Part shown: piece after piece, positions 5,749 through 60,518 of the stretch
Numbering within the stretch: position 1 is the stretch's first letter
How the letters are laid out: each line of letters starts with the position of its first letter
Origin: an uncultured Lentisphaerota bacterium
GTDB lineage: Bacteria; Verrucomicrobiota; Kiritimatiellia; CAIQIC01
Assembly (NCBI GenBank): GCA_903896925.1
Contig: CAITZM010000081.1
Coordinates: forward strand, 12,111 to 76,110
Direction: 5' to 3'
DNA: 64,000 nt
The notes under the pieces: model-generated
Database searches by the model: none
What the model was told of the DNA's origin: nothing
The model's input: only the letters and a program-made list of their open reading frames with translations
Position numbers and translations under genes: made by a program

Positions 5749-5758
5749 GGGTGTCTCC

Positions 5759-7602: not shown

Positions 7603-7714
7603 GGCAGGGCGGAGCAGCGGCCTGCCGGCCCTCTCTGGTAGCTACAGACCGCAGAGCCCCGCTTGGCCGTCCCGCTCGGTCGCGGGCGCCACGGGCCGCA
7701 GAGTCGGCGTGATG

Positions 7715-35905: not shown

Positions 35906-35980
35906 AAAGCAACTCATGAGCGGACTTCCGCAGGGTAAACCAGGTTCGCAGCAGCAGGGCGCCAGAAAGCCCGGTGAGGG

Positions 35981-38386
35981 ATGAGGCAAGTCGCGTCCGG
36001 CGGCGGTTTCAGGGACTTGCTTTTGCGGGGTGGGGTGCGCCTCCGGTTCTGGACCGTAGTCTGTTTATCGACAGGACTGCTGGGGGGCCGGGCTCAGGAG
36101 CAGCTGGATTATGCGCAGGCGGAAGCCGGGACGTTGGGGGGCTATTATCACGCCATGCCGGACGAGACGGAGCCGCAGCTGCGGCAGGAGCTGGGCATCA
36201 ACGACAGCGTGTACCCCGTGCTTAAGCAGGCCCGGGCCGCTTTTGAGGACAGGCGCTGGGCGGCCGCGATCAGCGTGTTGGAGAGCTTGCTGGAACATTC
36301 ACCGGAGGTCATGCCGGCGTGGGATGTGTTGGGCGATGCCTACTGGATGTCCGGGCGGCAGGATGACGCGCTGAAGTTGTGGAACCGGCTGATCGCCATC
36401 CGGCCCGATTTTGCGCCGGTCTACGGCTGGCTGGGGCGCGCGTATCTGTCGCGTGGTGAGTCCGGACCCGCGCGTCTGGCGTTCCAAAAAGGCTTGGAGC
36501 TCGGTGGCCTGAAGGGGATGGAGCGGTTGAATTATGCGCGGGTCTTGCGCTGGAGCGGCGATCATGAAGCGGCGGCGGAATTGTTGCGGCCCATGGCTCA
36601 AGAACATCCGGACCGGTTGAGCGTGGTGTTGGAACTGGCCAGCGCACTGTTGTCCAACCGCGACTATGCGGAAGCGTTGCCCTGGTGGCAGCTCCTGCAA
36701 AAAGCCGAGCCGGCCAACCTCATCATCCGGGCGCGCGCCGCCATGGCCCTGTTGCATACCGGCCATGTCCAGGAGGCGCTCACCCAGGCGCGAGCGGTGC
36801 TGGCCGAAAACGCACGGGATGTGAACGCCCTCGGCGTTCTGGCCGACCACGCCCAGTTCCGTGGCGGACAGCCCGCCGAGGCCCTGCCCTGGTTGCAGCA
36901 AATGATGGCAGCGACCGATGCGCCCGTGCGGCAGCGGCAATTTACGCTGCGTTATGTCAATCTATACAGCGCCCTGCACTACAAGGACCCGGCGCGCTAT
37001 CCGTTGGCGGTGGCGGTGACCATGCTGCAGAAGCTGGTCACGCGGGAGCCGGCCGACTCGGATTTGCGGCTGGCGCTCGGCGAGCTGCTGATGATGTCCG
37101 AACGTTTTCCCGAGGCGCGCGAACAGTTCGGGTGGGTGCTGGAGCGGCTGAATCCCGGCAACATCCGGGCGCTGCGCAATCTGTTTGAGATCGCCCTGGC
37201 CGAGGGCCGGCACGCTGAGGCGCGAGCGTATCTGGACCGCAAGCTGGCCTTCAACCCGCTGGACCCCTACCGCCATTATCTGCTGGCGCGGTGGTATGCG
37301 GCGCAGGAGAACTATCCCAAGGCCCAGGCGGAGGCGGATGAACTGGAGGCCGCAGGCTTGCGCGGCGCGGTGGCCGTGTTGTTGTATCACGGCTTGTCCA
37401 GCAGCGAAAACGGGGTGCTCCTGCCGGCCAAGCTGTTCCGCGAGCATTTGCTGGCCCTGCGCCAGGCGGGCTTCCGCTTTGTGACCGCCCCCAAATTGAC
37501 GGCGACCTTGGCGGCGGGGGGCCAGGCGCCACAACGCTTTGTGGACGCACGCGTGGACCGTGCCGTCTGCGTGACCTTTGATGATGCGCGGCGCGACAGC
37601 CTGCGGTACGGCACCCCGGTGGGCCGCGAGCTGGGCCTGGTTTTTTCCATGCATATCCCCGTGGGCAATGTAGAGATGAAACACCCGTTCATTTGTACGT
37701 GGAACCAATTGCGCGACTACCAAAAAAACAAGTGCTGGCTGTTTGGCGGGCACTCGTTTGACGCCCATGAACGCACGGCGGTAGACGCCGAGCAGCATCT
37801 GGGCTTTGCCCTGGCCAACCATCGGTGGCTGGCCAAGGCCGGCCGGGTGGAGACCCCTGAGGAATATGCTCTCCGCCTCGAGCGGGAATATGGCGACAGC
37901 CGCGCCAAAATTGCGAGCGAACTGGGGCTGGGGCAGCCGTGTAACTTCATGGCCTATCCGTTCGGCGATATCGGGCAGCTCGCGGTCAGCAATGACCCGG
38001 ACGCGCCGCGCATGAACCTGGAGCAGTGTCGCCGGACGTTCAGCACGGGCTTCATCCAGAGCGCCTACGGCTATGCGCTGGCGGATGACAATCCGCTGCT
38101 CTATCAGCGTCTGGAGCCGGAGCGCATGGCCAGCGGGGCGGACGTCGTCCGGCAGATCCTGGAAAATCATCCGGTCAACATGGCCCGCCGGTTGCGCGCC
38201 GAATGTTCCGCGGCCCAGGGCAAACGGCATGCCGTGATCGACACGTTGCGCGTGTTGGCCCGCGATGGCTACCCGCCGGACACCTTGCGCAACCTGCGGA
38301 CCAGCCTTGAGCACAAGCTCGGGCGCGGCTTGGCGGTCCCCGAGCTGGATGACGAGTCCGCACCTGCCAGAACTGCCGCGCCGTGA
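35981..38386 (+). CDS. secreted TPR-repeat + polysaccharide deacetylase (CE4-like) protein, paralog 2
   Basis: Same architecture and motifs as paralog 1 (AVAVLLYHGLSSSENG, VTFDDARRDSLRYGTP, YPFGDIGQ). Tandem duplicate. Confidence 0.65.
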   Translation: MRQVASGGGFRDLLLRGGVRLRFWTVVCLSTGLLGGRAQEQLDYAQAEAGTLGGYYHAMPDETEPQLRQELGINDSVYPVLKQARAAFEDRRWAAAISVLESLLEHSPEVMPAWDVLGDAYWMSGRQDDALKLWNRLIAIRPDFAPVYGWLGRAYLSRGESGPARLAFQKGLELGGLKGMERLNYARVLRWSGDHEAAAELLRPMAQEHPDRLSVVLELASALLSNRDYAEALPWWQLLQKAEPANLIIRARAAMALLHTGHVQEALTQARAVLAENARDVNALGVLADHAQFRGGQPAEALPWLQQMMAATDAPVRQRQFTLRYVNLYSALHYKDPARYPLAVAVTMLQKLVTREPADSDLRLALGELLMMSERFPEAREQFGWVLERLNPGNIRALRNLFEIALAEGRHAEARAYLDRKLAFNPLDPYRHYLLARWYAAQENYPKAQAEADELEAAGLRGAVAVLLYHGLSSSENGVLLPAKLFREHLLALRQAGFRFVTAPKLTATLAAGGQAPQRFVDARVDRAVCVTFDDARRDSLRYGTPVGRELGLVFSMHIPVGNVEMKHPFICTWNQLRDYQKNKCWLFGGHSFDAHERTAVDAEQHLGFALANHRWLAKAGRVETPEEYALRLEREYGDSRAKIASELGLGQPCNFMAYPFGDIGQLAVSNDPDAPRMNLEQCRRTFSTGFIQSAYGYALADDNPLLYQRLEPERMASGADVVRQILENHPVNMARRLRAECSAAQGKRHAVIDTLRVLARDGYPPDTLRNLRTSLEHKLGRGLAVPELDDESAPARTAAP

Positions 38387-38464
38387 AGCGCGCCCGGCCC
38401 GCGCTGGTCCGAATTTATTCTTGCGAACGGTGGTTTTATGAGCGAGGATTCGCAAAACTAAGAG

Positions 38465-41400
38465 GTGCGTGTGATACATCCGCGAGCCGTATTGAGCCTG
38501 AATTTTGTCAGCGTGAGTCTGGGGTCTTTGGTGCTGCTGCTGGCTGCGCAAGCGCAAACGCCGTCAGCCGGGCGCGCGGCCCTGGCCCAGAAGGCGGTCC
38601 CGCCGCCGGCCGCACCTGTGTCGTTCATTTTGAAGCCCCTCAGCCCGGCAGTCGCGGTTCCGACCAACGCCCCGGTCAGGTCCGAGCTTCCTGCTGTCGA
38701 GGCCCCGGTGGCCGTTGCCCCGACCAATGCGCCCGTCAAGTTTGAAGGGCGTTCGGAGCTGGCCGATATCCAGGATGATTTGGCGGCAGGACGACAGAAG
38801 CAGGCCATCGCCAAGCTGGAGGCGGTCATCGTCAGGAATCCCGGCATGCACCGTGCGTGGGAACTGCTCGGCTGGACCTATTGGCAGGCCGGGCGGCAGG
38901 ATGACGCCATAAAGCTGTGGGAAAAATTACGCGAGCTGGATCCGGGCTTGCCCACGGCCTACAACATGCTGGGGCAGGCCTATTCCTCGCGCAACGAGCT
39001 GAACAAAGCGGCCGCCAGTTTCCTCAAGAGCCTGAGCCTGAATCCCGACCAATATGAGGTGTCGTTTGGCCTGGCGCGCATTTACCGGTGGATCGGCGAA
39101 ACGGATCGGTCCATCGAGATGTTTCGTGCGCTGTTGGTCAAGGATCCGCAACGGGTGGATGTGCAGCGGGAACTGGCCCGCGCGCTGATGGACAACCGGA
39201 ATTACGATGAAGCCGCGCCCCTGTGGGCCGAGGCCGTGCGGGCCAGTCCCACGAACGAAGAATTCATGATCCGGCAGGCCGTCGCCCTGTTGCATACCGG
39301 GCATATCAAGGAAAGCCAGGACATGGCCGCCAAGGTGCTGGAGCGCGATCCGACCAATGTGCAGATTTATCTGGTGCAGGCCGACATGGCGCAGCGCAGC
39401 GAGCATCCTGAGGAGGCGCTGGAACCTTTGCGGAAGATTGTGCAAGTGGCGAAGGATGACCTGCAACGGCGCCAGGCCCGTACGCGTTTGATCCGCTTGT
39501 TGGTGAGCATCCACAAGCGGGCCTCGTTGAAGCCTTCGCTGAGCGAGCCCGTCCGGCTGGTGCGCGACATCCTGCACGAAACGCCCAACAACGTGGACGC
39601 CAACCTGATGCTGGGCGAATTGCTGTTGCTGGACGGGAAACTGGACGATGCCGAGCGCCTGTTCCTGCATGTGCTGAAGAATTACAACGTCGGCAACCAG
39701 CGGGCGCGGCGCGACCTGTTCGAAACCTATACCGCCATGCGCCGCTATACGGACGCCAAGCAGCAATACAAGATCATCGAGGCGTTCAACCCCCAGGACC
39801 CCTTCCTGTTTGTCCGGCAGGCGCGCCTCGAAGAATGCCGGGGGAATTATAGCGGCATGGACAAGGCGTTGAAAAAGCTGGAAAGTTCAGCCAATGCCGG
39901 CGCCGTCGCCGTGCTGATCTATCACGGTTTGACGACCAGCGAATGGTTGGATATCACCTCGGTGCACCAGTTCCGGCAGCATCTGACGGCGCTGAAAAAA
40001 GCGGGCTTCCGCTTTATAACACCGGATGAGATCCCCGCCTATTTCGCCAAGCAGGGCAAGGCCAGTCCTGAATCGCGGCGTGCCGTGCCGGAGCGGGTGG
40101 TGTGCGTGACCTTCGACGATGCGCGTCGGGATGCCATGGCTCTGGCTACGCCCATCGCCCGCGAGTTGGGGGTCAGGCTCGCCATGCACGTCCCCGTGAC
40201 CGCGATCGAGCACAACGAGCCGTTTATGTGCACCTGGGATATGCTGCGGGAATATCAGAAATCAGGCTGCTGGGCGCTGGGGAGCCACATGCTGGATGCA
40301 CACGACCCGTCGCCTGTCGATGCCCAAGGGGAGGAGAAAGTTTATCCTGCGACCAGCCGCCTGTGGCTCGCAGGTCAGAACCGGCTGGAGACGCCGGAAG
40401 AATTCCAGACGCGACTCCATCTGGAATATACCGAAAGCCGTAAAGTCATGGAAGCGAAGCTGGGCCGGCCGGTGACGTTCATCGCCTATCCCTTCGGCGA
40501 CATCGGCCAGGAAACTTTTGCCAACGTGGACGATGCCTTTGCCGAGAATCTGCGCCAAGCCGGCGCGGTCTATGCGGTGGGCTTCATTCAAAATACGCAC
40601 GGTTATGCGGTGAACGGAGACAATCCGCTGCTGTATCAGCGCTACGAGGTGGAGCGGGATGTCACGAGCACGGAGCTCGTGGAACACCTGCTCGACAACC
40701 ATCCTTACTATCTGGCCCTGGCCATGCGCGCCCAGATGGCGGCGCTCTCCGGCAAGGTGTATCTCGCGAAAGAACTGCTGGAGGAACTCAAGCAGAGCGG
40801 CTATCCGGAAGCGCTCCAGGTGAAAATGGAGCAACAGGTCCAGGAGCACCTCGCCGGCCGGTATGCGGCCGACGCCAAGACGGAGATGGCCGATAAAAGC
40901 CCCCTGCAGATCCAGTTGGCGCATCCCTACGTGGGTGTGCATGGCGAGTATTTTCAGGACAACCTGGATTCGCGCAACTGGCGGATTTACGGGTTGGGCG
41001 GCCTGAACCTCACGCCCAATTTGAAGGTTGAAGGGCGCGCCGGTGCGGGGCAGATGCGCCAGCCCATGACCAACAGCTTGCCGCCCTTCCCGACGCCGCC
41101 GCCCATCCCGGACATCAAATTGACCGAGAAGATGGCTGGCGTGGCGCCCGCGTTCACCTTCCCCAACGGTTGGGTGTTGATGGGTGAATTGTCCGGTCGT
41201 AATTTCTCGGGCGATGTGCCCACCGACCTGAACGGGAAAACCAAAGCCTTTGACAAAACAGTCATCCAGTACGCGGTCGAGGGCCAGGCCAAGCCGCTCC
41301 TCCCTCTGGATATCGCCGCCCGTTGGGAGCATGATGTGATGCCGAATGCCCGCGAGGTCGTCAATGAAACCACCTACAACCTGGCCTCGGTCAACGCAGT

Positions 41401-41938
41401 GTACAGCCTGTATGATTCGTGGAGCCTGTGGGGTTCGGGGCAGCATTATGCGATCTCGGATGGCAACAAGCGCGATCATCTGGCCCTGAGTTCCGATTGG
41501 CTGGTCTGGGAGGAAATCGGGTTGCATGCCGGCCTGCGTTACGCCTATGCCAACGCCAGCACGCCTAGCTCCGACTACTGGACACCCTATCGCCTGAACC
41601 GGTATTTGGCGGAATTGGGCTTGCGCGGCAATTACCTGCGGGCGATCTACCATCTGCGACTGCACGCCGGCATCGGCAAGCAGAGCGTGCGGACCGAGTC
41701 GGAACAGCGCTACCAGGATCTGTTAAAAGTGGCGCAGACCCAGCACTGGCCGCAGAGCGCCGTCGATCAACTGATGGCCACCAAGCCGGAGGAAAAATGG
41801 CAGGCCGCGGTGGGCGTCAGTGCCTCCAGCGTCATCAAGCTGACAGGGAACTGGGATGCTGATTTTGAGGTCTCCTACAACAAGGTGCCGGATTACAATG
41901 AGCTCACCGTGACGGCCGGTGTGAAATACAACTTCTAA
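38465..41938 (+). CDS. secreted TPR + CE4-like deacetylase + C-terminal outer-membrane beta-barrel fusion protein (PgaA-like plus PgaB-like in one chain), 1157 aa
   Basis: Signal peptide, TPR region and deacetylase motifs (AVAVLIYHGL, VTFDDARRDA, YPFGDIGQ). The last 330 aa or so show alternating amphipathic beta-strands ending ..TAGVKYNF with a terminal Phe. Confidence 0.6.
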   Translation: MRVIHPRAVLSLNFVSVSLGSLVLLLAAQAQTPSAGRAALAQKAVPPPAAPVSFILKPLSPAVAVPTNAPVRSELPAVEAPVAVAPTNAPVKFEGRSELADIQDDLAAGRQKQAIAKLEAVIVRNPGMHRAWELLGWTYWQAGRQDDAIKLWEKLRELDPGLPTAYNMLGQAYSSRNELNKAAASFLKSLSLNPDQYEVSFGLARIYRWIGETDRSIEMFRALLVKDPQRVDVQRELARALMDNRNYDEAAPLWAEAVRASPTNEEFMIRQAVALLHTGHIKESQDMAAKVLERDPTNVQIYLVQADMAQRSEHPEEALEPLRKIVQVAKDDLQRRQARTRLIRLLVSIHKRASLKPSLSEPVRLVRDILHETPNNVDANLMLGELLLLDGKLDDAERLFLHVLKNYNVGNQRARRDLFETYTAMRRYTDAKQQYKIIEAFNPQDPFLFVRQARLEECRGNYSGMDKALKKLESSANAGAVAVLIYHGLTTSEWLDITSVHQFRQHLTALKKAGFRFITPDEIPAYFAKQGKASPESRRAVPERVVCVTFDDARRDAMALATPIARELGVRLAMHVPVTAIEHNEPFMCTWDMLREYQKSGCWALGSHMLDAHDPSPVDAQGEEKVYPATSRLWLAGQNRLETPEEFQTRLHLEYTESRKVMEAKLGRPVTFIAYPFGDIGQETFANVDDAFAENLRQAGAVYAVGFIQNTHGYAVNGDNPLLYQRYEVERDVTSTELVEHLLDNHPYYLALAMRAQMAALSGKVYLAKELLEELKQSGYPEALQVKMEQQVQEHLAGRYAADAKTEMADKSPLQIQLAHPYVGVHGEYFQDNLDSRNWRIYGLGGLNLTPNLKVEGRAGAGQMRQPMTNSLPPFPTPPPIPDIKLTEKMAGVAPAFTFPNGWVLMGELSGRNFSGDVPTDLNGKTKAFDKTVIQYAVEGQAKPLLPLDIAARWEHDVMPNAREVVNETTYNLASVNAVYSLYDSWSLWGSGQHYAISDGNKRDHLALSSDWLVWEEIGLHAGLRYAYANASTPSSDYWTPYRLNRYLAELGLRGNYLRAIYHLRLHAGIGKQSVRTESEQRYQDLLKVAQTQHWPQSAVDQLMATKPEEKWQAAVGVSASSVIKLTGNWDADFEVSYNKVPDYNELTVTAGVKYNF

Positions 41939-42248: not shown

Positions 42249-43220
42249 TCAGTCGCGCCGTCGGGCCGGCCCCAACCGAACAGGCGAAACGAATCCCTCC
42301 GGCTTAACGGCCAGCACGGAGCAGCGCACATGGCTCAGAACCGTCTCTGCTGTGTTTCCAATGAGCAGGCCATCCAAGCCTGAGCGGCCCGCGGTGCCCA
42401 TCACAATAAGTTCTGCACTGCGTTGGGCCGCCAGTGCATTGATCACCTGGGCTGGTTCGCCTTTCAGCACTTTGACCTGAACCCCTCGGCCCGGAAGATC
42501 GCAGGTTTCCACAAGACCGCCCAACCAGCGCCTGTGGGTGGCCGCCATAGCCCGAACAATATTTTCAAGGTCAACCCCAGGCGGTCGCACGCGCTCAGCC
42601 CACTGTTTGACCATGTCTTCTTTATACACGTTCCACACGTGGACAATCCAAAGCTCGCTGCCCTCCGAACGCGCCAACGCGGCCGCCAGGGCGATGATCT
42701 TGGCGGCCAGTGCGAGCTTCTGGCCGTCACCCGGGTCCGGATCTACCGCCGCAAGGATGCGTCTGAACGGCCTCTCCATGCCGGGCTTGAACGCCCATAA
42801 GGGGCACGGACACTTGCGCATCAGATGCATGGTCGTACTGCCGAAGAGCTGCGCGCGCAATCCGCTTGAACCCGCAGCCGTCCACATCAGCAAATCACGG
42901 TTGTGCTCGATAACATCGCGGATGACCTCGATATGGGGCGTACCGTAACGCACCACAAGCTCGATCTGCTGCCCTTTCAAACGCAGCGGCTTGACCAGAA
43001 GCGCCAGCTGGTTGCGCAGCTCCTTCAGTGCAAAGTTCTGTAGGTTAGCCGGCAGGGTGGCGGCCAGGAACAGCTGAAGGTCACGCGGCAAATGTTGCAA
43101 CACACCCAGAACAGTCAGCCGTGCGCGGTTACACTGTGCCAGCGTCACCGCACGTTCCAAGGCGACCCGGTTCTCGACCCTGTCATCAACGAAATACACT
43201 ATGTTTTTAAATCGCTTCAT
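42249..43220 (-). CDS. tandem universal stress protein (UspA) domains
   Basis: Two Usp-fold halves, each ending with the G-x2-G-x9-G(S/T) ATP motif (GTAGRSGL..GNTAETVL). Start overlaps the histidine-kinase stop. Confidence 0.7.
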   Translation of the reverse strand: MKRFKNIVYFVDDRVENRVALERAVTLAQCNRARLTVLGVLQHLPRDLQLFLAATLPANLQNFALKELRNQLALLVKPLRLKGQQIELVVRYGTPHIEVIRDVIEHNRDLLMWTAAGSSGLRAQLFGSTTMHLMRKCPCPLWAFKPGMERPFRRILAAVDPDPGDGQKLALAAKIIALAAALARSEGSELWIVHVWNVYKEDMVKQWAERVRPPGVDLENIVRAMAATHRRWLGGLVETCDLPGRGVQVKVLKGEPAQVINALAAQRSAELIVMGTAGRSGLDGLLIGNTAETVLSHVRCSVLAVKPEGFVSPVRLGPARRRD

Positions 43221-45933
43221 GCACAGTTCCTCCGCGTTTGCTTGCGCCACAGGGTTTGCCGGCAGGCAGGATACAGCCAAGCGCGGTGCGCAGTTCCTTT
43301 AACGTATAGGGCTTGCCCAGGTAGGCTTGGGGCCGTTCGGGATGCGCACCCTCCATCATGCCCGTCACAGCGTAGCCGCTGGCCATGATCACCGGCAAGT
43401 CCGCGCACAGCGTCCGGAGCGCGGCAATCGTTTCCCAGCCGTTCCGGCGCGGCATGGTCAGGTCAGTCAGGACGCAGCGAATTTCAGATTGGTGCTGCTG
43501 GAACACCTCCACCGCTTCGACACCATCCTGGGCGGTCAGGACCGTAAACCCCAGCGAGGTGAGCATGGTCGCTGCCAATTTGCGCAACGCCGCATCGTCA
43601 TCGACCACCAGCACCGTACCGCCCACTTCGAATGCCGCATCCGGGGTCGCGCTGGCTGGCGGAGGGCTGGTAATTGAGGTTGCTACCGGAAAATAGACGC
43701 GGAAGGCGCTGCCGTGGCCCGGTTCACTATCCACCGTAATGGCCCCGTTGTGCGTCCGTAAAATGCCCAGAACCACAGGCAGGCCCAAGCCCCGGCCAAT
43801 AAACTTTCTGGAGAAAAATGGGTCGAAGATCTTTTCGATGTCCGTGACTGCGATCCCGCAACCGGTATCAACCACGGCGAGGCAGGCGTAGGTCTGCGCC
43901 AGGGGTTGCCAATCGACCGGGAAACGATGCGTGGTGGGGATGTCCCGCGCAGAAACCGTTTTGACGGATAGGCGCACGGCACCCCGACTGGCCCCGCCGG
44001 ATTCCCAAGCATTGGTGACCAGGTTGGTGAGCACTTGTTGGATCTGGTTGGCGTTGGAGTTGATGACCGGTCCTGGCGTGGCCAGATCGGTTTCCAGAAC
44101 CACCGGCTGGGAGCTCCTGAGCAAGGGCAGGCTTTGGAGGCAAAGCGCTGCAAGATCCAGTGGCTTGTTTTCGTGGGGAGCCTGTCCCAAGTAGGTCAGC
44201 ATCAACCCGCTCGTCTTCGCTGCCTGCCGGGCCGCGTGCATGGCTTCGTTCAGGCTCGCGGTGGTTTTTGGATCCCGCGAACTGACCCCAGCCAGAGCCA
44301 GCTCCAGATTCCCGATCACCGCCTGGAGTTTATTGTTAAATTGGTGGGCGATGGCACCGGCCATACGGCCCAGGCTTTCGGCCTTTTGCAGGTGCTGATT
44401 CTGGGCTTCGAGTTGCGCCCGCTCTGCCGCGGCCCGTTTTGCTTCGGTGATATCGCGGAAGTGGCCTTGAATCACCTTGTGTTGGTTCACCAAGAAAGCG
44501 TGGCTGGCGAAATCCACCTCGATCCGGCGCCCCTTGGCGGTTTCCAACGCCAGCGCTTCGGGACGGATATATTCTTTCGCCTGCAATCCCGCAAAGTCGG
44601 CTGCACTGGTGGCGATACCCTTAAAGGGGGCCAGTTCCCAAATCTTCTTGCCGAGGGAGGCCTCGCGTACGCAGCCCAACAGCTCGATCAAAAAGGGATT
44701 CATGTCCTCGATCGTCCCGGTCTCGGCATCGAGAATCAGAATGCCGTCTTTGGCCGACTCAAAGAGCCTCCGATAGCGGAACTCCGAAGCGCGCAACGCC
44801 TCGGCCAACGCACAACGCTCTTTATAAAACTGAACGCGCTGGTGTCTCCAGATGTGTCCCAAGCACGCCGCTATGCCGATGAGCAAAGCGCCGATCAGGA
44901 TAACGGTCTCCCAGAGACGTATTCTTAACGGCGCACAGACCTCCGCGATATCCATGCGGGCGACCAGATGCCATGGTGAATCGGGAATGCTGCGCAAGGC
45001 AGCCACAACCGACTCGCCCCGGTAGTCGCGGCCTTCCATGACGCCTTCGCGTCCCAAGGCGGCCTGAGCCGCAGATGATGTTTCTTGATCCAAATCCGCG
45101 CGCAAGGTCAGTATGGTATTCGTCTGAAACCGCAACTCATTCAGGAAGACGACTTCGTTGCCGTCCCGGCGGACCAGCAGTGTCTCGGCGGTTCGACTGG
45201 GCGTTGGCCAGCGTTTGATGAAGGGGTAGAGGTAGATTTCAGGATCAATGCGTAGCGAGAGGACGCCCAGCGGTCGGTGGCCATCCGCAGCTTCAAAAAT
45301 GGGCACCAGCACCGACAAATAGATACGCTGGTCGTTTTCGTGGCGGTAAAAATCCTGCATGATCACTTGGCCCGCTTGTAGGATTTCTGGAATGCGCTGC
45401 AAAACAGCGGCGGATACAAGACGCTGGTCGTTGGGGACAGCCATGCGCACGACGCCTTGAGCATCCAGCAGGCGCACCTGATCATACCGATTATAAGTCT
45501 GGACCTTGCCGATCCAGTCCTGAAGCTGTCGTTGGACGTCTGCGTCCTCCGGTTGCGCGAAGAAACGTCGCACCAGATCGGAAAAGCTGGCGTTCTTGAA
45601 AAACTCGAGGCCATCGCCCATCCGCTCCTTGCGCCACTGCGTCAGCTCATCCACCTTCAGATCCGCAATGGCACACAGCTCGCGCTCCACCTCCTCCCGG
45701 TAGTGCCTTTCGTAGTGCCGATAGGAGTAGTAACCGGCGCCCAGCAGTCCTGTGCCGAGGGCGGTAAAGAGCAGCATGAAAAGCTTGCTGGTGCCACGAC
45801 CTCCAACCGGGCCTGGCACCCAAGCTGGCCTTTTAGTTTCAACCCGGCATGGGTTGGGGCCTGCGCTCCGGGCATTTCGTCCCGGCCTCAAAATATGGAG
45901 GAACAGGTCAAGGAACTTCTTTATCGTCTCCAT
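43207..45933 (-). CDS. hybrid sensor histidine kinase (periplasmic sensor, PAS, HisKA, HATPase, receiver). Possible internal start at 45777.
   Basis: H-box AIAHQFNNKLQAV, G-box GRGLGLPVV, receiver VLVVDDDAALRKL..D, two TM segments. Confidence 0.8.
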   Translation of the reverse strand: METIKKFLDLFLHILRPGRNARSAGPNPCRVETKRPAWVPGPVGGRGTSKLFMLLFTALGTGLLGAGYYSYRHYERHYREEVERELCAIADLKVDELTQWRKERMGDGLEFFKNASFSDLVRRFFAQPEDADVQRQLQDWIGKVQTYNRYDQVRLLDAQGVVRMAVPNDQRLVSAAVLQRIPEILQAGQVIMQDFYRHENDQRIYLSVLVPIFEAADGHRPLGVLSLRIDPEIYLYPFIKRWPTPSRTAETLLVRRDGNEVVFLNELRFQTNTILTLRADLDQETSSAAQAALGREGVMEGRDYRGESVVAALRSIPDSPWHLVARMDIAEVCAPLRIRLWETVILIGALLIGIAACLGHIWRHQRVQFYKERCALAEALRASEFRYRRLFESAKDGILILDAETGTIEDMNPFLIELLGCVREASLGKKIWELAPFKGIATSAADFAGLQAKEYIRPEALALETAKGRRIEVDFASHAFLVNQHKVIQGHFRDITEAKRAAAERAQLEAQNQHLQKAESLGRMAGAIAHQFNNKLQAVIGNLELALAGVSSRDPKTTASLNEAMHAARQAAKTSGLMLTYLGQAPHENKPLDLAALCLQSLPLLRSSQPVVLETDLATPGPVINSNANQIQQVLTNLVTNAWESGGASRGAVRLSVKTVSARDIPTTHRFPVDWQPLAQTYACLAVVDTGCGIAVTDIEKIFDPFFSRKFIGRGLGLPVVLGILRTHNGAITVDSEPGHGSAFRVYFPVATSITSPPPASATPDAAFEVGGTVLVVDDDAALRKLAATMLTSLGFTVLTAQDGVEAVEVFQQHQSEIRCVLTDLTMPRRNGWETIAALRTLCADLPVIMASGYAVTGMMEGAHPERPQAYLGKPYTLKELRTALGCILPAGKPCGASKRGGTVHEAI

Positions 45934-54900: not shown

Positions 54901-55920
54901 TGAGATGGATTCGTCCACCGGCCAGGAGCGGTCCAGGAAGTCCACCAGGTCCTCTCCGGACCATTCCGGTTTTACGCGCAGCCGGTTGAGCCGCTTCGGA
55001 TCGCTATAGCGGGTGTTGACGGACAGGTTGCCGGTCAAGAACCCCAGGCTGTAATACTTGCTCGCCAGCTGCAGGTTGACCAGGCGGGCGAATACGGCGC
55101 GCGATTCAAACTGGCCGAAGTCGCCATAGGGATAGGCGTACGCCTTGGGCTTGATCCCGGTCTTCTTCTCGATGACCTGCAGGCAGGCCTCATGATCCTG
55201 CGCCAACCGGTCGGCGAACTCGGCCGGGGTCTCGAACCGATTCTCCTCCGCCAGCCATTTGGCGGTGGTCATGAAATGCCCCAGATAGCCCTGCTGGCTG
55301 GCCGGGACCGCCGCAAAACCATTGAAGCTTTGCGCGCCCAGTTCCCAGGTGCCCGACCGCGACATGATCTGTATGTAGGGCCACAGCAAAGCGGCAGGAT
55401 CCTTGTCGATGATCGGATGGGTCCACAGGAACATCACGGCTTTCCAGCCCGCGCTCTTGAGGATGGGGTCCGCCGCGAAATACGAACTCTTCCGGCCGTG
55501 ATCGAAGGTCAGCAGCACGGACTTTTGGGGTACAGGCTTGCCTTCGTAAAGCAACTGGCGCACATCCTCCAGTTGGATCGGCACATAGCCCCGGCTCCGC
55601 AGTTCCTTCAGGTGCTCCGTGAACAAGGCGGTATTGACCTCGTTGGTGCGCTGCGAAACGCCCTCGTAGGCCAGCGCCACAAAGGCGTACGAGGTGCGCG
55701 GCCCGGCTTTGACGTCGGGATACATCCAGTGTGAAATCAGGGCCCGCAGGGGGAAATACCAGGCCACCACCAGGCAGAGCACAATCATGAAGTGCATCCA
55801 CGAGGAGGTGTAGACCACGGTGACCGGCTGAATAATCGTCCGCCCCCCGGCGCCATCTCCGCCGCTCTTCGGCGGGGTTTGGTCGGGCGTGGACTGCGGC
55901 GCTTGCGGCTTCGTAATCAT
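51928..55920 (-). CDS. large membrane-anchored multidomain exopolysaccharide-modifying protein (TM helix, CE4-like deacetylase, TPR region, further carbohydrate-active-like domains), about 1330 aa
   Basis: Start ATG overlaps the synthase stop (ATGA at 55917-55920). TM helix WMHFMIVLCLVVAWYF. Deacetylase-like block VLLTFDHGRKSS...YAYPYGDFGQ echoes the paralogs at 33-42 kb. TPR-like repeats around TLWQQWFAAEPNN..DAFLRLGDLKQALTNY. The ORF could extend to 56274 but would then overlap the synthase by 357 nt. Confidence 0.6.
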   Translation of the reverse strand: MITKPQAPQSTPDQTPPKSGGDGAGGRTIIQPVTVVYTSSWMHFMIVLCLVVAWYFPLRALISHWMYPDVKAGPRTSYAFVALAYEGVSQRTNEVNTALFTEHLKELRSRGYVPIQLEDVRQLLYEGKPVPQKSVLLTFDHGRKSSYFAADPILKSAGWKAVMFLWTHPIIDKDPAALLWPYIQIMSRSGTWELGAQSFNGFAAVPASQQGYLGHFMTTAKWLAEENRFETPAEFADRLAQDHEACLQVIEKKTGIKPKAYAYPYGDFGQFESRAVFARLVNLQLASKYYSLGFLTGNLSVNTRYSDPKRLNRLRVKPEWSGEDLVDFLDRSWPVDESISSVTNTSRIAAAWIVDWGAVKDDKAGMTLYAPEQNTGAKMWLAGSDLTKDFYSRVVFSQLSGQLGIYARAAADEESYVYLGLDSKGTACLRQTKFGQDATRMEAEESLDMGVWLRQKQATLERFTLASSHVNVDATKGEHVLDINARGPLLFARLDGKPIFSERVLLRGDMKPGMIGLSIWQADKGRAKVTISEVTLKPPERSVATWDSRSSQHDAGVFRWIHQHAYSLTDISPSWINFSPSGQMLKSVWDSTAYAMIARMYHFRLLPRVNIGDEQSLTRVTPSQLADKLSEIKAQGMFVTMDEMQKPTTTRIMTWLQQCANDLRARGLELKVRLPPSLETPVFVRSLLAVIPSIQVVAEPGSPLRAITPKGPSVPTAKLEQVPIPDQDKDMPMFYELNAMAENQSLTSSVFKTSRLLQDGQAAFMDGDYSKAVTLWQQWFAAEPNNPRPPMLIGDAFLRLGDLKQALTNYSTSLDLDPGQIRLALRRAGLLDTAGRIEEAMNELNIYARLFPDNTSIMLAQAEWLRRHDRSAEAIPIVQHIIQVDTNNFEAVAFMLRLPIAPADYRTQMGTLARIGAQPEFQYELGQAIWKYDLFSLPGSRALVKLVQQIAAQTKDARIATLYERLLPRKDQVSENFAGGKISPAWWLDGGVFKAESGKLLIHSDDTHSEATMRLLGSEHFRDAYVEGVVQRKLGAFWLYARRTSEHMVRFGWDESGTIYLQLWRNNHIVDQRSRPWPDTKAAVRLRLEVRGEGLMGYINDQPAFSSPLEVPADFDLGWLGLAAFSAELGKAQVVMERASAGPLAPRMLLLPGIKSEAMLDTALAAVRPEIDRVTDMAPAWFNISAEGVWQPSIGSEDQLLRLFTRYHRIRLMPAVTVEPGAALRAEDLIGAAAKYRVDGFILLFPALPDKTWFDTMERSLGHSNIKLVAAALTPDKGTAQVRGMAAGSDLLSTGSEGTQEAIVQQWDTPPGTHKPLADLPPAKVAILKL

Positions 55921-57497
55921 CTCGTCCCCCATGTAGTTCTGCGCATCGTGGCAAAGGCGTAATAGCCCTGCCAGCTGAAAAAGAAAACGTAAGTCAAAAC
56001 AAAGATGAACCCGGTCCACCAATGCCGCCGGCCGGTTTTTTCCAAATAGTAGAGCGACCACAGCAGGGTCACGACCAACACGCCGCCAATATAGAAACCA
56101 GGGAGGCGGTGCATGGCCAGCGGCGCCATGATGAGCGCGTTGAACATCACGAGCGGCGCAATCGTCGGCAGAATGGTCATGGCGTACCAGGAGATGGCCG
56201 CCACAGGATGCTTGCGCCACATAAACTGACCGGCGAGAAACATCTCCCGCCCCCACGAGCGTTTCCAGCGGCACTGCTGGTTGACATATTTGCGCCAGTC
56301 TTCCGGCACGATCGTGGTGGCGAGCGCCTCGTCGTCATAGAGGATGCGGTAGTTCTTCAGCAGCATGTTCGTCAGTGCGCGGTCATCTCCGAACGTCGCG
56401 TAGTTGCCCAGAAATTTCTGGTAGAGCCACTTGTCGAGCACGTGCAGCACGCACGATTTACGGTAGGCCGAGAAGCAGCCCGGGCAGCAGCTGACCGCGC
56501 CGAACAGGCTCTCCGCGGCCTTCATTACGCGATAGGATACGAAGTAGCGCACGTCCTGCATCTTGGTCAGGACATTGACCTCCACGTTTTCCACATCGGT
56601 GTGTCCGGCCACGGCCGCGACGGTGGGATCCACCAGCCCTTGCACCACCTTGTGGATGGAGCCCGGCAAGAGAAAGCTGTCGGAATCCACATAGACCAGC
56701 ACTTCGCTGCGCGCCAGCCGTGCGCCCACCGCCATGCCATGGCGCTTGCCCTTGTTCTGCTCGAAATCCACGACGATCAGGCTGGGGTGCCGGGCTTGGG
56801 CGCGCATCATGTCAGCCAGGGTGTTGTCGGTGGAGCCGTCATTCACGGCGACCACTTCCAGCTTGGAATGCGGATAGCCTTCGCCATAGATCCGGCCGAT
56901 GGTTTTCTCGATGGAGCCTTCTTCGTTGCGACAGGCCACGATCACGGCCACCGTGGGTTCGTAGCCGACATCGGACGGGGCCATGTAGAAGGCGGCCAGG
57001 AAAAACCTGGAAAGAATGAATACGCCCACGGTCAGGCTGTAGAGGTTGACCAGCGGTTGATACCAGTAATAGGTCAGATTGTGGAGTTTCAGGAAAACGG
57101 CCAGGGCCAGGAGCAGGATGATCGCGAAAATGAGGAAGATAGCCACCGGCTTGGCGGGTTGGCGATAATTCTCGGAGCCCGCGCGAGCTTCGAACATGTT
57201 CGCAGGCTCAGGGCTGGCTGGCGGGACCACAAACGTCTCCCGCGTCATGCGTGCCTGGCAAAACGGGCAGACCATAGGGGAGGGGGCACGGATGACCCGT
57301 ATCCCCAGCAAGCAATGCGGACAGTAATCGGTAGTGCCGGTTAAGCGTTCCGTCGCCAACGTGCTGCCCTGAAGGCGCACGGCTGTCTCCACCGCTAAAC
57401 TATTGGCTCCACTTTGAAGCGGCGCCGACGAAGCAATGACCATATGCCCTCTTGTTCTATTTCGATTATACTGTATACGAAGAGCGTTCAAACGCAA
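55917..57497 (-). CDS. membrane-embedded processive family-2 glycosyltransferase (PgaC/IcaA/BcsA-like polysaccharide synthase) with an N-terminal zinc-ribbon
   Basis: GT2 DxD region (VNDGSTDNT, YVDSDS), the QCRWKRSW signature (QxxRW) and flanking TM helices. The N-terminus carries CPHC...CPFC. Confidence 0.75.
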   Translation of the reverse strand: MRLNALRIQYNRNRTRGHMVIASSAPLQSGANSLAVETAVRLQGSTLATERLTGTTDYCPHCLLGIRVIRAPSPMVCPFCQARMTRETFVVPPASPEPANMFEARAGSENYRQPAKPVAIFLIFAIILLLALAVFLKLHNLTYYWYQPLVNLYSLTVGVFILSRFFLAAFYMAPSDVGYEPTVAVIVACRNEEGSIEKTIGRIYGEGYPHSKLEVVAVNDGSTDNTLADMMRAQARHPSLIVVDFEQNKGKRHGMAVGARLARSEVLVYVDSDSFLLPGSIHKVVQGLVDPTVAAVAGHTDVENVEVNVLTKMQDVRYFVSYRVMKAAESLFGAVSCCPGCFSAYRKSCVLHVLDKWLYQKFLGNYATFGDDRALTNMLLKNYRILYDDEALATTIVPEDWRKYVNQQCRWKRSWGREMFLAGQFMWRKHPVAAISWYAMTILPTIAPLVMFNALIMAPLAMHRLPGFYIGGVLVVTLLWSLYYLEKTGRRHWWTGFIFVLTYVFFFSWQGYYAFATMRRTTWGTR

Positions 57498-57940
57498 TGT
57501 TTCTTTATCAAAAGGGCTTGGTGGAAGTGCTGAGAGGAACGGTAGTGCTGTGGCCGCCGGAGCAGGCCATTTTTACGCGGACAGCGGGTCCGGCGGCGGT
57601 GCACAACGGACCGGGTTTGCCGCACGCTTTGGCACCCTGAACGCGAGCTGCCGCCGCCGGGCCGCCGTGTGCGAACGGCAGGCGAGGGAGTCGCCGGTAA
57701 CTGGTGTGGGGTGCGCTGGTGCCCCGCAAGGGTCGCAAGGGGGCGGCTCTTCAGGGTATCCTGTGTCGCTGGCCCCCTGCCTCCTGCGCCCGTTCCGAGT
57801 CACCACCACTCCCGTTCCGCATGGAAAAAAGCCCCCCCCCATATGCGGGGTCAAGCAAGGAAATACTTTATTGCTTACCAAGGCTAAAACTGTATAGTCA
57901 CGCCCCAAGTAAACTTGTACGTCGATTTGAAAGGGCGCTC

Positions 57941-58348
57941 ATGAGCATGGCCAAAATTTTGATCATTGAAGACGAGCCGGTGGTGTGGTCGTTGCTGCGG
58001 CGTATCATCACCGGGATGGGGCACCAAGTGGAACTGGCCAGCGACGGGCAGAAGGGTCTGGCCTTGGCCGGCCAAGGCCAATTCGATGTGATCGTTTCCG
58101 ACTTGCACATGCCGGGACAACCCGCCGGCATGGAACTCATCCGGCAGTTGCACAACCTGTGCCCGAAGTGCCCGATCGTCATCGTCTCCGGATACCCCTC
58201 CGCGGAGACGCTGAGCGAGTGTGAACAGTTGGGCATCACAGATTTCCTGACCAAACCCTTTGAGATGACCTTTGTGCAGGCCAGTATTGAGAAAATCCTG
58301 AAAACAAAGGCGGGCATGGCTCCCGTGCCGGCCAAGGGGAATGCATGA
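57941..58348 (+). CDS. single-domain response regulator (CheY-like receiver)
   Basis: KILIIEDEP...VIVSDLHMPG...TKP. 135 aa, no output domain. Confidence 0.7.
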   Translation: MSMAKILIIEDEPVVWSLLRRIITGMGHQVELASDGQKGLALAGQGQFDVIVSDLHMPGQPAGMELIRQLHNLCPKCPIVIVSGYPSAETLSECEQLGITDFLTKPFEMTFVQASIEKILKTKAGMAPVPAKGNA

Positions 58349-59277
58349 TTGGTAAAACTCCCATAGGTGTTCCGTTCTTCGACGCCGAATTCGGCGGCGT
58401 CTACCCTAACCGGGTGTCGTTGGTCACGGGCCGCGCCGGGTCGGGGAAAACCATCTTGGGTTTACACTTTCTTGACCAAGGCTTGCGGCAGCACGAACGG
58501 GCTTTGATGTTGTCGGCCCGGCCGGCGCAGGATCTGGTCATCACCGCGGAATCGCTGGGGATGTCGTTTGCCCCCTCGATCGAGTCGGGCGCGTTGACCC
58601 TGTTGGAGTACAACGAATTTGTCCCCGGCCGCGACCATGAAGCGAACATCAACCTGCCACCCGACGGGTTCATCCAGCTCAAAGAGGTGATCGAGCAGCA
58701 GGCCGTCAATCGCGTTGTGATTGATACCGTCTTGCCGTGGATCACCCTGTCGGATTCCGCCCATCTCCCCGAGCATATTTTCTCCTTGGTGCGCGCCTTC
58801 GAGCGCCTGGGTGTCACCGCGCTGTTCACCTTGCCCAAGCCGGTTTCGACCACGGCGGGCCGGCTGCGCAAGCTGGTGGAGGATGTGGTGCCGGTGTCCC
58901 TGACGCTGTTGCGCGAGCCCGACGCTCCCTCGCGACAGATGCTGGTAACCAAGTACCTGGGCGTGAATGCGCGGCCGGAAGGCTTCGCCTACGACATCGT
59001 CGCCCAAAAGGGGTTTGTCCTGTATCAGCCCGCACCCCAGGAGTCGCCGGCCCTCGGCGCCCCGACCTTCTTCGCCTCAGCCGCGGCGCGGACAGCGCCG
59101 GTCATGGCGCCGGAAGTTGCGCCCGTGGCTCCGCCTCCTGCGCCGCCTGCGGGCAAGGGCCGTATCAGCTTTGCTTCCATGGTGCTTGATCAATCACTCT
59201 CCGCCCGCTCTGGCGCAACGCGGCCAGTTGCGGCACCCCCTATGCGAGGGGGGGCGGGGACCGGCGGAGGGAGTTAA
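58345..59277 (+). CDS. KaiC/RecA-superfamily single-domain ATPase with a Pro/Ala-rich tail
   Basis: GVPFFDAEFGGVYPNRVSLVTGRAGSGKT Walker A in the KaiC/RadA-like context. ATGA-coupled to the receiver gene. Confidence 0.6.
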   Translation: MIGKTPIGVPFFDAEFGGVYPNRVSLVTGRAGSGKTILGLHFLDQGLRQHERALMLSARPAQDLVITAESLGMSFAPSIESGALTLLEYNEFVPGRDHEANINLPPDGFIQLKEVIEQQAVNRVVIDTVLPWITLSDSAHLPEHIFSLVRAFERLGVTALFTLPKPVSTTAGRLRKLVEDVVPVSLTLLREPDAPSRQMLVTKYLGVNARPEGFAYDIVAQKGFVLYQPAPQESPALGAPTFFASAAARTAPVMAPEVAPVAPPPAPPAGKGRISFASMVLDQSLSARSGATRPVAAPPMRGGAGTGGGS

Positions 59278-60141
59278 ATGTATTTCAAATACTGGGGTCT
59301 GCGGGAGCGACCGTTTCAAAACATAGCCGATGTGCGGTTTGCCTATCTTTCCGAGCAGCATCGGGAAGGTTTGGCGCGTTTGTTGTACCTGGTGGAGGAG
59401 CAGAAGCTGGGCGGAACCTTGGTGGGCCCCTACGGCGTCGGCAAGTCGATGATCATCGAGTTGCTGGCCGAAAACGTGCGTGGCAAGATCGGTGAACGTT
59501 ATCTGCAGTTCGACGCACCCCTGACCGGTGCGCTGTCGCTGGCCAAGCAAATCGTCGCGCATCTGGGTCATACCGAGACCGTCTATGACATCTCCGGCGC
59601 TTTGGAGGCGCTGCAAAACCACTTTACCGAAACCAACGGCGGTGTGGCCCATCTGGTGCTGGTCATTGACGAGGCCCAGATGCTGCGGGCGTCCTCGGAC
59701 TACGAATTTCTCCATCTCTTGTGCAATATGCGCATGCGTCGGCGCGATGGGAGCCTCGGTGCCCCGGCGATCACGTTGTTGCTGGTGGGCCATCAGGATT
59801 TGGTGCAACATCTGGCCGCGGAACAGTCGCTGGCCCAGCGCCTGCAGCTTTTCTGGCGCCTGGAGCCGCTCAACGCCCGCCAATGCATCGAATATGTGCA
59901 GCACCGCGTGCGCGCTTCCGGCGGGGATATCTGGATTTTCGATGAAGGCGCACTGGCCGCGGTCCATGAGGCCACGCAGGGCGTGCCGCGCCTGATCAAC
60001 AACATTTGCGACACCGCCCTGCTGATCGGTTGCGCCATGCATGCCCCGCGGATCACCGCGGACATCATGCGGCAGGCCATTGCCGAGACACAGTCACCCT
60101 TGCTGCCGCCGACCGTGTCACCCCCTGGAGTTCCCGTATGA
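59278..60141 (+). CDS. ExeA/MshM-like AAA ATPase (secretion-ATPase family seen in PEP-CTERM/EPS loci)
   Basis: ERPF motif, GPYGVGKS Walker A, VIDEAQ Walker B. 287 aa. Confidence 0.6.
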   Translation: MYFKYWGLRERPFQNIADVRFAYLSEQHREGLARLLYLVEEQKLGGTLVGPYGVGKSMIIELLAENVRGKIGERYLQFDAPLTGALSLAKQIVAHLGHTETVYDISGALEALQNHFTETNGGVAHLVLVIDEAQMLRASSDYEFLHLLCNMRMRRRDGSLGAPAITLLLVGHQDLVQHLAAEQSLAQRLQLFWRLEPLNARQCIEYVQHRVRASGGDIWIFDEGALAAVHEATQGVPRLINNICDTALLIGCAMHAPRITADIMRQAIAETQSPLLPPTVSPPGVPV

Positions 60142-60518
60142 ACGAACTAAGCTCCTCCATGCTCACCACCACCGGCATCATTGCCACGCTCATCAGCGTC
60201 CTGTTTGCCATCGCCGCGCTCGTGATCGCCAACCGTCGCAAGAAACATCATCAGGCGATGCAACATGCGGTAGCCCCGGTGAGCCAGGCCCATCAAGGTG
60301 CACGGCCCGAGAATCCCATGGCGTTTGTGGCCCCCCATCCGGAGCCCCTCCCCGTGGCGGCGGCGCCGACCACGGCGGCCGATAATTTGGTCTATGACTC
60401 CACGCGGTCCACCTCCTCGCCGCTCTTCAAGCGCTTGGGCCGGGTGGGTGTGGAACAAGTCACGCCGTCCGCGACCGAAACCACGGCGGCCGACAGTCAG
60501 AAGGCGGCTTGGGAATAA
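60138..60518 (+). CDS. small single-pass membrane protein with a Pro/Thr/Ala-rich tail
   Basis: TM helix TTGIIATLISVLFAIAALVIANRRKK. ATGA-coupled to the ATPase gene. Confidence 0.4.
   Translation: MNELSSSMLTTTGIIATLISVLFAIAALVIANRRKKHHQAMQHAVAPVSQAHQGARPENPMAFVAPHPEPLPVAAAPTTAADNLVYDSTRSTSSPLFKRLGRVGVEQVTPSATETTAADSQKAAWE

Follow-up and report, generated by a model that had tools for sequence, protein, structure and literature searches.

Synthase-dependent exopolysaccharide systems, such as those for cellulose, poly-N-acetylglucosamine (PNAG), Pel and alginate, are the textbook examples of secretion machines gated by cyclic di-GMP (c-di-GMP). The current report deals with a polysaccharide locus of the same layout in a 64-kb stretch of DNA from an uncultured Lentisphaerota bacterium (GenBank contig CAITZM010000081.1); we refer to the whole of this stretch as "the window", and all positions given below are window positions. 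In this locus, a processive family 2 glycosyltransferase (GT2) and a giant deacetylase with tetratricopeptide repeats (TPR) are linked to a divergently transcribed cassette of four open reading frames (ORFs) that all lie on the forward strand, fill positions 57941-60518 exactly and are predicted to encode proteins of 135, 310, 287 and 126 aa. These are a receiver, a degenerate KaiC-like protein, an AAA+ ATPase and a small membrane protein, which we call the tether protein. It is very probable that the cassette is functionally dedicated to the polysaccharide system. A familiar layout with no detectable c-di-GMP receptor, and with linkage instead to a receiver, a pseudo-KaiC, an AAA+ protein and a tether, points to a control logic of phosphorylation combined with a nucleotide switch, and the module may represent c-di-GMP-independent control of synthase-dependent exopolysaccharide.

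The polysaccharide machine resembles the PgaABCD and IcaADBC systems and the class of hyaluronan synthase (HAS) and NodC in that a membrane-embedded processive GT2 is tied to TPR and to a PgaB-like deacetylase of carbohydrate esterase family 4 (CE4). As in PgaABCD/IcaADBC, the genes for synthase and deacetylase are translationally coupled (here by a 4-nt overlap of the synthase stop and the start of the giant gene) and the architecture is synthase-dependent, with a processive GT2 in the inner membrane and a TPR scaffold together with a modifying CE4 enzyme. It differs from these systems in that a single signal-anchored protein of 1330 aa unites the deacetylase with the TPR, in the absence of PgaD, PilZ or any other c-di-GMP receptor and of a recognisable PgaA-type beta-barrel, and in the company of the four-gene cassette. 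Searches with Pfam and NCBIfam found no PilZ, PgaD, GGDEF or MshEN domain in the six proteins of the module, and neither PelD nor Alg44 was detected. The same two collections gave no match to an outer-membrane porin family in the module, in which ~900 aa of the giant protein are without a family assignment.

The synthase matches the Glycos_transf_2 and Chitin_synth_2 families, misses all equivalog cutoffs, stands nearer to HAS and NodC than to PgaC, and carries a zinc ribbon in its N-terminal cytoplasmic part. Its best NCBIfam match is NodC (TIGR04242, 167 bits against a cutoff of 550), with PgaC (TIGR03937) at 121 bits against 422, and its best solved relatives are the hyaluronan synthases of Chlorella virus and vertebrates (E 7e-32 over residues 227-508), followed by chitin synthases. 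The ribbon reads C41-x2-C44...C59-P-x-C62 (~57258-57323), and 36 of 48 orthologous loci gave a match to the corresponding pattern, CxxC-x14-17-CPxC; the remaining 12 are for the most part stretches that end inside the motif. The giant protein, which is conserved beside the synthase in orthologous loci, has an N-terminal transmembrane (TM) helix, a Polysacc_deac_1 domain, TPR_14/19 repeats and a match to PgaB (TIGR03938) of 99 bits against 322 over its CE4 part, and its relatives in the PDB are the PgaB structures 3vus and 4f9d. Because a HAS/NodC-like GT2 is combined here with a PgaB-like CE4 enzyme, the predicted proteins indicate a polymer that contains N-acetylglucosamine and is partly deacetylated, the linkage and composition being features that cannot be read from sequence. 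By eye, residues ~300-750 and ~900-1330 of the giant protein appear as two internally repeated blocks, each with a jelly-roll-like stretch and, after it, the motif D[IM][SA]P[SA]W[IF]N[FI]S...R[LI].[PL], and have no Pfam match.

A preliminary description of this DNA had proposed that the cassette is an accessory module of a GT2/deacetylase exopolysaccharide system and that its co-occurrence with such loci be examined. The proposal is borne out, in that the linkage recurs with unrelated flanks among 78 loci in genomes and 36 in metagenomes. Exact and homologous look-ups found the same six genes, surrounded by unrelated flanks, in a Lentisphaerae metagenome-assembled genome (MAG), a Kiritimatiellae MAG and three metagenome contigs. 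The 78 loci came from a family-alignment scan of one genome per GTDB species; their lineage-named records are Lentisphaerae, Kiritimatiellae, Verrucomicrobiota or PVC group (Planctomycetes, Verrucomicrobia, Chlamydiae), and the others are labelled as uncultured bacteria. When the six window proteins were compared with these loci by tblastn, with counts taken over the informative loci, the receiver gene was found directly upstream of the KaiC-like gene in 67 of 75 and the AAA+ gene directly downstream of it in 61 of 66, and a GT2 gene was present within the locus in 29 of the 41 whose upstream sequence reaches 8 kb or more, so that the co-occurrence analysis was positive. The cassette is present twice in several genomes, and several of the copies that have no GT2 adjoin polysaccharide-modifying genes (a 1244-aa TPR and CE4 protein, MBOAT, DUF459/SGNH, GHL10).

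The linkage extends beyond this family. An exhaustive profile search returned 96 cluster representatives at E<=1e-30, including a distant second subfamily of KaiC-like proteins (subfamily B) that have ~25% identity to the window protein and long, Pro-rich tails ending in [KR]FS[SND][IV]I[KRQ]-COOH; a metagenome scan with this subfamily yielded the 36 loci mentioned above. Here the gene order on one strand is REC-PAS, KaiC-like, AAA_22, a TM tether ending in YKWN, GHL10, the zinc-ribbon GT2 and the deacetylase (L104, L106), and the zinc ribbon of the synthase is again present in L106. That an identical set of genes recurs with its order and orientation changed argues strongly that these genes form a functional unit. 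In addition, two proteins of NCBI assemblies that are 77% identical to each other, P0258 and P0348, are by Pfam natural fusions of the KaiC-like protein with the AAA_22 ATPase, and in L085 the fusion gene overlaps the downstream tether gene.

Several peculiarities of individual loci may be recorded here. The subfamily-B synthase of L106 (13081-15228) is 715 aa long, with ~200 extra residues that include hydrophobic segments in its C-terminal membrane part, and it keeps the N-terminal ribbon. A gene for a GHL10/DUF4015 hydrolase-like protein (~650-780 aa) directly follows the tether gene in ~25 loci of the window's own family A (L015, L020, L036, L041, L045, L050, L056, L075 and L112 among the examples) and is found in all of the longer subfamily-B loci; it is absent from the window. 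A T2SSE ATPase with the c-di-GMP-binding MshEN domain and a T2SSF protein are encoded directly upstream of the subfamily-B cassette in four loci only (L106 at 4828-7658, L090, L094 and L084), three of which are closely related, an arrangement that recalls the mshM/mshE neighbourhood of MSHA pilus operons. Pairs of receiver and KaiC-like genes are also found by themselves or accompanied by histidine kinases (L005, L014), and in L005 (5966-9436) a second such pair, together with a multi-PAS histidine kinase, is inserted between the synthase gene and a regular cassette; this kinase may be a clue to the type of the cognate kinase. There are also relatives of the KaiC-like protein that are fused to GGDEF-like domains (P0266, which passes the Pfam cutoff, P0298 and P0276, which are weak, and also P0287 and P0292), with a REC-like domain between the two parts in P0276, which hints that in other settings this scaffold is part of c-di-GMP-type circuits. 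A receiver fusion in P0256 and P0261 is not claimed here, the N-terminal extension being receiver-like by eye and unrecognised by Pfam.

All four domain-level assignments of the preliminary description were correct when scored with Pfam and NCBIfam, among them the stand-alone CheY-like receiver that is followed by a single-domain KaiC/RecA-like protein. The receiver scores 87.1 bits against a gathering cutoff of 30.2 (Response_reg, PF00072) and has no output domain, and its phospho-acceptor Asp (SDL), acidic-pocket Asp, Ser/Thr and Lys (FLTKPFE) are kept in 70 receiver orthologues. The KaiC-like protein scores 96.4 bits against 26.6 (PF06745). It shares with KaiC and with other single-domain homologues (archaeal ArlH/FlaH, SSO2452 and PH0186/PH0284) the RecA-like KaiC fold, the P-loop and the Walker B Asp, and with many non-cyanobacterial KaiC proteins the genomic pairing with response regulators (bioRxiv 10.1101/2022.01.26.477890). 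In Pseudomonas, KaiC homologues have been found to bind a neighbouring kinase, as well as a response regulator with a single domain (bioRxiv 10.1101/2022.01.26.477890).

The core of the KaiC-like protein, residues 1-230, was modelled by AlphaFold2 (AF2) with confidence scores (pLDDT) >90, and the Foldseek search with this model placed it closest to the CI domain of KaiC (target-normalised TM-score 0.80-0.83). In sequence alignments with PDB entries it matches either of the two KaiC domains. Walker A, GxxGxGK[TS], has been preserved, as has the Walker B residue Asp127. The catalytic Glu-Glu pair (KaiC E77/E78) is replaced family-wide by R/K-P, so that the strand-2 F-E-E corresponds to S-A-R-P in the window protein, and the arginine finger K-L-R-G is replaced by K-Y-L/Q-G, here K-Y-L-G. 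Both losses are found in every single-domain representative examined, whereas all of the two-domain KaiC proteins in the same search table keep FEE and K[ML]RG. The KaiC equivalogs NF006799 and TIGR02655 are missed by a wide margin (66.3 bits against 408 and 38.2 against 546) with a single domain of 230 aa, and neither KaiB nor KaiA domains were found in the neighbouring genes of the window or of five annotated loci. Judged by these motifs, the protein may still bind nucleotide and has probably lost hydrolysis. Its other departure from KaiC and from the single-domain homologues, apart from being coupled and sometimes fused to an AAA_22 ATPase, is a long tail (residues 231-310) that is disordered and Pro/Ala-rich, with pLDDT <50 except in a short helix at 277-281. 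At this helix lies a conserved motif, [KR]x[SR]F[AS][SDN] (ISFASMV, ~59164-59184), which is retained in loci that have no AAA+ gene and is therefore probably not a docking site for the AAA+ protein.

The ATPase encoded by the third gene had been described as an ExeA/MshM-family protein of the PEP-CTERM type. Its place in the ExeA superfamily stands (AAA_22, PF13401, 48.7 bits), but membership in TIGR03015, the PEP-CTERM-associated family, is rejected: this is its top NCBIfam match and aligns colinearly over the full length (1-272 against 1-267 of 269), yet the score is 115.8 bits against a cutoff of 324.5, and a PEP-CTERM motif regular expression found no match in the six-frame translation of the window. 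No exosortase was seen among the annotated neighbours, the profile scan having covered part of the window ORFs. In the alignment of orthologues the residues G50xxG53xG55K56, D131-E132-A133-Q134, R188, R210 and R238 are invariant. Since the sequence had no match in the PDB, a model (AF2, pLDDT 88.7) and fold search were used; all 287 aa are accounted for by an AAA+ base and lid, and the structures that come closest (query-normalised TM-scores of 0.6-0.7) are those of ORC/Cdc6, RuvB, MuB and TnsC.

With ExeA-ExeB/GspA-GspB, MshM and TIGR03015 this protein has in common the conserved N-terminal AAA_22 region, Walker A and DEAQ box, a small bitopic partner in the inner membrane and a tie to an envelope export machine, and its orthologues are named GspA/ExeA by the Joint Genome Institute (JGI). 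In contrast to ExeA/GspA it is soluble, with no TM, PG_binding, SPOR or OmpA domain in the Pfam results or the model, whereas the ExeA-type homologues that were recovered carry PG_binding_1, SPOR or OmpA; its partner, unlike ExeB/GspB, has an inverted topology and only a cytoplasmic tail, and no secretin, exosortase or PEP-CTERM protein was seen in the locus. ORC/Cdc6, MuB and TnsC are ATP-dependent loaders or matchmakers. The cassette protein has its best structural neighbours among such switch-type AAA+ proteins, which undergo ATP-state-dependent assembly and are not unfoldases, but the likeness is at the level of the fold class only (15-20% identity), and it differs from these DNA-acting proteins in having no DNA-binding domain or DNA-related context.

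The fourth gene had been labelled simply as encoding a membrane protein, which is right as to its one TM helix (~60174-60236) but hides a conserved cytoplasmic element at the C-terminus. No Pfam, NCBIfam or PADLOC match was found for this protein. It begins with 12 aa outside the membrane, and the helix is followed by an RRKKHH cluster and a disordered, Pro/Ala-rich cytoplasmic part with the terminal element FKRL...AAWE-COOH (60426-60515). Its predicted topology by the positive-inside rule is N-out/C-in, opposite to that of ExeB/GspB. Positional equivalents were collected from 58 loci and gave 57 distinct sequences after removal of duplicates; they share the short N-terminus, a TM helix of the form TG[LVI]IAT.LS..FA.AA, the basic cluster and the Pro/Ala-rich linker. 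Endings in W[ED] were found in 55/57 and in [YFHA]xW[ED]-COOH in 52/57, and F[KR][KQR][LFVYI] occurs in 48/57, at 21-33 and mostly 24-25 residues from the C-terminus. This F[KR]Q[LF]...YxWE-COOH element is a candidate docking site. The tether gene is missing jointly with the AAA+ gene in L014, L029, L048 and L049, and the two have been relocated together in L063; in L037, L046, L053, L055 and L058 the tether gene alone has changed place and now directly precedes the receiver gene. The KaiC-like relative P0238 itself ends in ...GYRWE, a motif that otherwise stands on the separate tether protein, which suggests that the terminal motifs are modular.

The reading with most support is that the synthase is controlled, or assembled, at the membrane by a post-translational route, because none of the four cassette proteins has a DNA-binding domain by Pfam and NCBIfam, because one of them is a tether, because the two P-loop proteins can be fused and because the synthase has a cytoplasmic domain specific to its family. 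To a more definite form of this idea, that the cassette is a phosphorylation-gated, membrane-tethered nucleotide switch or assembly module that controls the synthase post-translationally, we would give roughly even credence; the gene linkage, fusions, motif states and topology described above are its foundation, and the physical contacts, the direction of the signal and the output are proposed as follows. A histidine kinase would phosphorylate the stand-alone receiver, in which all of the catalytic residues are present. The receiver might then bind the translationally coupled KaiC-like protein, which would serve as a nucleotide-binding ring or scaffold and not as a clock. This scaffold, which is associated with the intact ExeA-type AAA+ protein by fusions and synteny, would work together with it, and the ATP state of the latter might set the module on or off. 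The tether protein would hold the complex at the inner membrane, with the F[KR]Q[LF]...YxWE-COOH element docking, and the output could be either the activation or the ordered assembly of the synthase, for which the zinc ribbon would be the most obvious contact. The client machine would consist of the zinc-ribbon GT2, the PgaB-like deacetylase-TPR protein and, often, the GHL10 hydrolase-like protein. The module would thus stand in for PilZ, PgaD, PelD and Alg44, the receptors through which other synthase-dependent systems respond to c-di-GMP.

A precedent for the first step of this scheme, alongside the KaiC homologues of Pseudomonas noted above, is the EpsW-EpsZ pair of Myxococcus xanthus, in which a single-domain response regulator directly activates an enzyme of exopolysaccharide synthesis (PMC12802240). 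The proposed scheme shares with it a stand-alone receiver and phosphorylation-dependent, post-translational control of a polysaccharide with no DNA-binding output. EpsW-EpsZ differs in belonging to a Wzx/Wzy pathway and in that the regulator binds the phosphoglycosyl transferase directly, whereas in the cassette two P-loop proteins and a membrane tether would stand between the receiver and a processive synthase. One might go further, as a tentative and distinctly speculative extension, and propose a new, c-di-GMP-independent class of control in which the phosphorylated receiver gates a catalytically dead KaiC-like ring and an ORC/TnsC-like AAA+ protein tethered by the tail of the membrane protein, with the YxWE ending and the zinc ribbon completing the circuit. 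If this were true, it would be the first role assigned to a degenerate KaiC as a scaffold, and the relatives that are fused to GGDEF-like and REC domains would suggest that the core is reused in other biofilm circuits.

A number of observations weigh against the dedication of the cassette to polysaccharide and against the switch that we propose. About 30% of the informative loci have no GT2 within 10 kb, and a few cassettes (L027, L031, L038, L039, L048) lie amid housekeeping genes; neighbours of this kind around GT2-less copies include DnaG, RlmN and topoisomerase VI. The existence of GT2-less loci means that the cassette can work from a distance or serve other clients. Nearly all of the members are from uncultured MAGs; the one isolate represented is Kiritimatiellaeota B1221 (L046). 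Neither an outer-membrane porin for export nor a cognate kinase for the receiver was identified. The loss of the canonical catalytic residues from the KaiC-like protein is, moreover, no proof of lost hydrolysis, and the invariant Glu88 could substitute for them.

Other roles can be imagined for the same genes. The AAA+ protein and its partner might, in the manner of ExeAB/GspAB, use ATP to remodel or bind peptidoglycan and so aid the assembly of that part of the exporter which spans the envelope or lies in the outer membrane, as ExeAB helps the secretin of the type II secretion system to assemble (PMC4098917). Such a role would suit the full-length colinear homology to ExeA/GspA/MshM/TIGR03015, the GspA/ExeA name in the JGI records, the constant pairing with a small bitopic membrane protein and the T2SSE(MshEN)/T2SSF pair upstream of a few cassettes. 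We consider it improbable, since the ATPase is soluble and, unlike the recovered ExeA-type homologues, has neither a TM nor a peptidoglycan-binding domain, the partner has a topology opposite to that of ExeB with all of its conserved parts in the cytoplasm, neither protein reaches the peptidoglycan, the module has no secretin, and the T2SSE/F pair was found in just the four loci, of which three are close relatives. A mobile or defence element that lies beside the polysaccharide genes, or a merely fortuitous neighbourhood, deserves hardly any credence. AAA_22 is related to the transposition ATPases of the TniB/TnsC type and the region has a lower GC content than the rest of the window, but PADLOC matches neither ATPase, the annotated flanks of the five look-up loci show neither a transposase nor an integrase, and the synteny over >100 loci with varying flanks, together with the gene fusions, effectively refutes this explanation.

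Two further explanations center on the receiver and the KaiC-like protein. The preliminary description had drawn on the non-circadian timers and switches that KaiC homologues form elsewhere, and a genuine timer, in which a cycle of ATP hydrolysis and autophosphorylation sets the timing of polysaccharide production, would agree with the KaiC fold, with membership in PF06745 and with a pairing to a response regulator like that of other non-cyanobacterial KaiC systems. It is nevertheless very improbable; timing by a KaiC-style ATPase and autokinase is unlikely because across the family the Glu-Glu pair has been replaced, as has the arginine finger (both are absent from every representative examined), and the protein has one domain, scores 66 bits against an equivalog cutoff of 408 and has no KaiB or KaiA gene in its locus. 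As a general signalling hub, the receiver and the KaiC-like protein, with or without the AAA+ protein, could act as a phosphate sink or kinase modulator that controls expression indirectly and has polysaccharide as one of several outputs. For the pair alone this is plausible, as pairs are found beside histidine kinases and a NarL-type regulator with no AAA+ or GT2 gene (L014, L005), some cassette copies stand amid housekeeping genes, and fusions to degenerate GGDEF and REC domains occur among the relatives. For the cassette as a whole it is rather unlikely: the linkage to GT2, deacetylase and GHL10 genes holds over two deeply diverged subfamilies and two gene orders, the dedicated tether and the synthase-specific zinc ribbon point to a membrane machine, the module conserves no DNA-binding component, and a hub would leave the tether, the AAA+ protein and the GT2/GHL10 linkage unexplained.

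In the literature searched we found no description of the cassette, or of a pair of KaiC-like and ExeA-type proteins with a polysaccharide synthase, and the cassette is unmentioned in the paper on the Pontiella exopolymer. Its proteins are annotated in public records as hypothetical, as KaiC/GvpD/RAD55 family ATPase or as general secretion pathway protein A. Thus the parts are all from known superfamilies and the client machine is of a known kind, but the accessory module itself is undescribed in that literature. Its carriers are PVC bacteria (Kiritimatiellia, Lentisphaeria and Verrucomicrobiota). The bacteria of this group are abundant processors of polysaccharides and producers of exopolymers in lakes, sediments and digesters, and almost none of them have been characterised genetically. 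The module also offers a handle on two groups that are poorly understood, the soluble ATPases of the ExeA/MshM/TIGR03015 type and the many single-domain KaiC homologues, one clade of which is defined here by the loss of catalytic residues.

The features of the locus are listed in Table 1. The preliminary description had the four genes chained by overlapping stops and starts, which the sequence bears out for two of the three junctions: the receiver stop and KaiC-like start share the ATGA at 58345-58348, as do the AAA+ stop and the start of the tether gene at 60138-60141. At the junction between them, the TAA of the KaiC-like gene (59275-59277) abuts the AAA+ ATG at 59278 with a gap of 0 nt and no overlap. 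Likewise, the 440-bp divergent control region of that description corresponds to the 443 bp obtained with a TTG start of the synthase at 57497, but the spacer is 497 bp long with the ATG at 57443 of the public gene call (508 aa). Its length is not conserved across orthologous loci (~90 to 460 bp). No sigma-70-like promoter or intrinsic terminator consensus was found in the spacer, the sigma-70 consensus being uninformative for promoters of PVC bacteria, and a regulatory RNA or riboswitch in the 497 bp is rejected for want of any Rfam family at E<=1.

Table 1. Features of the cassette and the adjoining polysaccharide genes in the 64-kb window
Feature	Position	Strand	Basis or remark
Stand-alone CheY-like receiver, 135 aa	57941..58348	+	PF00072; protein begins MSMAKILIIEDE
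Single-domain KaiC/RecA-like P-loop protein, degenerate active site, 310 aa	58345..59277	+	PF06745
Soluble ExeA/GspA/MshM-superfamily AAA+ ATPase, AAA_22, 287 aa	59278..60141	+	PF13401, intact motifs
Small bitopic membrane-tether protein, 126 aa	60138..60518	+	One TM helix, no Pfam match
Divergent intergenic region between cassette and synthase	57444..57940	.	Read off sequence
Membrane-embedded processive GT2 synthase, 508 aa, HAS/NodC/chitin-synthase class	55917..57443	-	Pfam/NCBIfam, PDB relatives
Giant signal-anchored periplasmic deacetylase-TPR protein, 1330 aa	51928..55920	-	Pfam/NCBIfam, PDB relatives

Farther from the cassette, a hybrid histidine kinase of 908 aa (dCache-PAS-HATPase-REC) is encoded at 43207-45933 on the reverse strand, followed by a tandem-Usp protein (42249-45933 region). 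It had been described as adjacent and as a possible source of phosphate for the receiver, a description that cannot be upheld: the gene lies on the far side of the deacetylase gene, at 6 kb from it and 12 kb from the receiver gene, with a P-type cation ATPase, a LysR gene and two small ORFs intervening, and it is not conserved in the other annotated loci. Being neither adjacent nor conserved, this kinase is rejected as the cognate partner. The GC content is 0.59-0.63 across positions 38000-60000, which include TPR genes, the kinase and the whole module, compared to 0.66-0.72 at 6-34 kb and 62-64 kb; the lower value could reflect an acquired island or a mere effect of gene content. On the forward strand, positions 33281-41938 are occupied by genes in tandem for three large TPR proteins, of 874, 801 and 1157 aa; in two of these a Polysacc_deac_1 domain stands after the TPR block. 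They share this architecture with the TPR-CE4 proteins that are encoded beside the cassette in L003 (274-3597) and L074 (874-4608). Lying 16-25 kb from the cassette, and 10-19 kb upstream of the gene for the deacetylase-TPR protein, they might also belong to the polysaccharide system.

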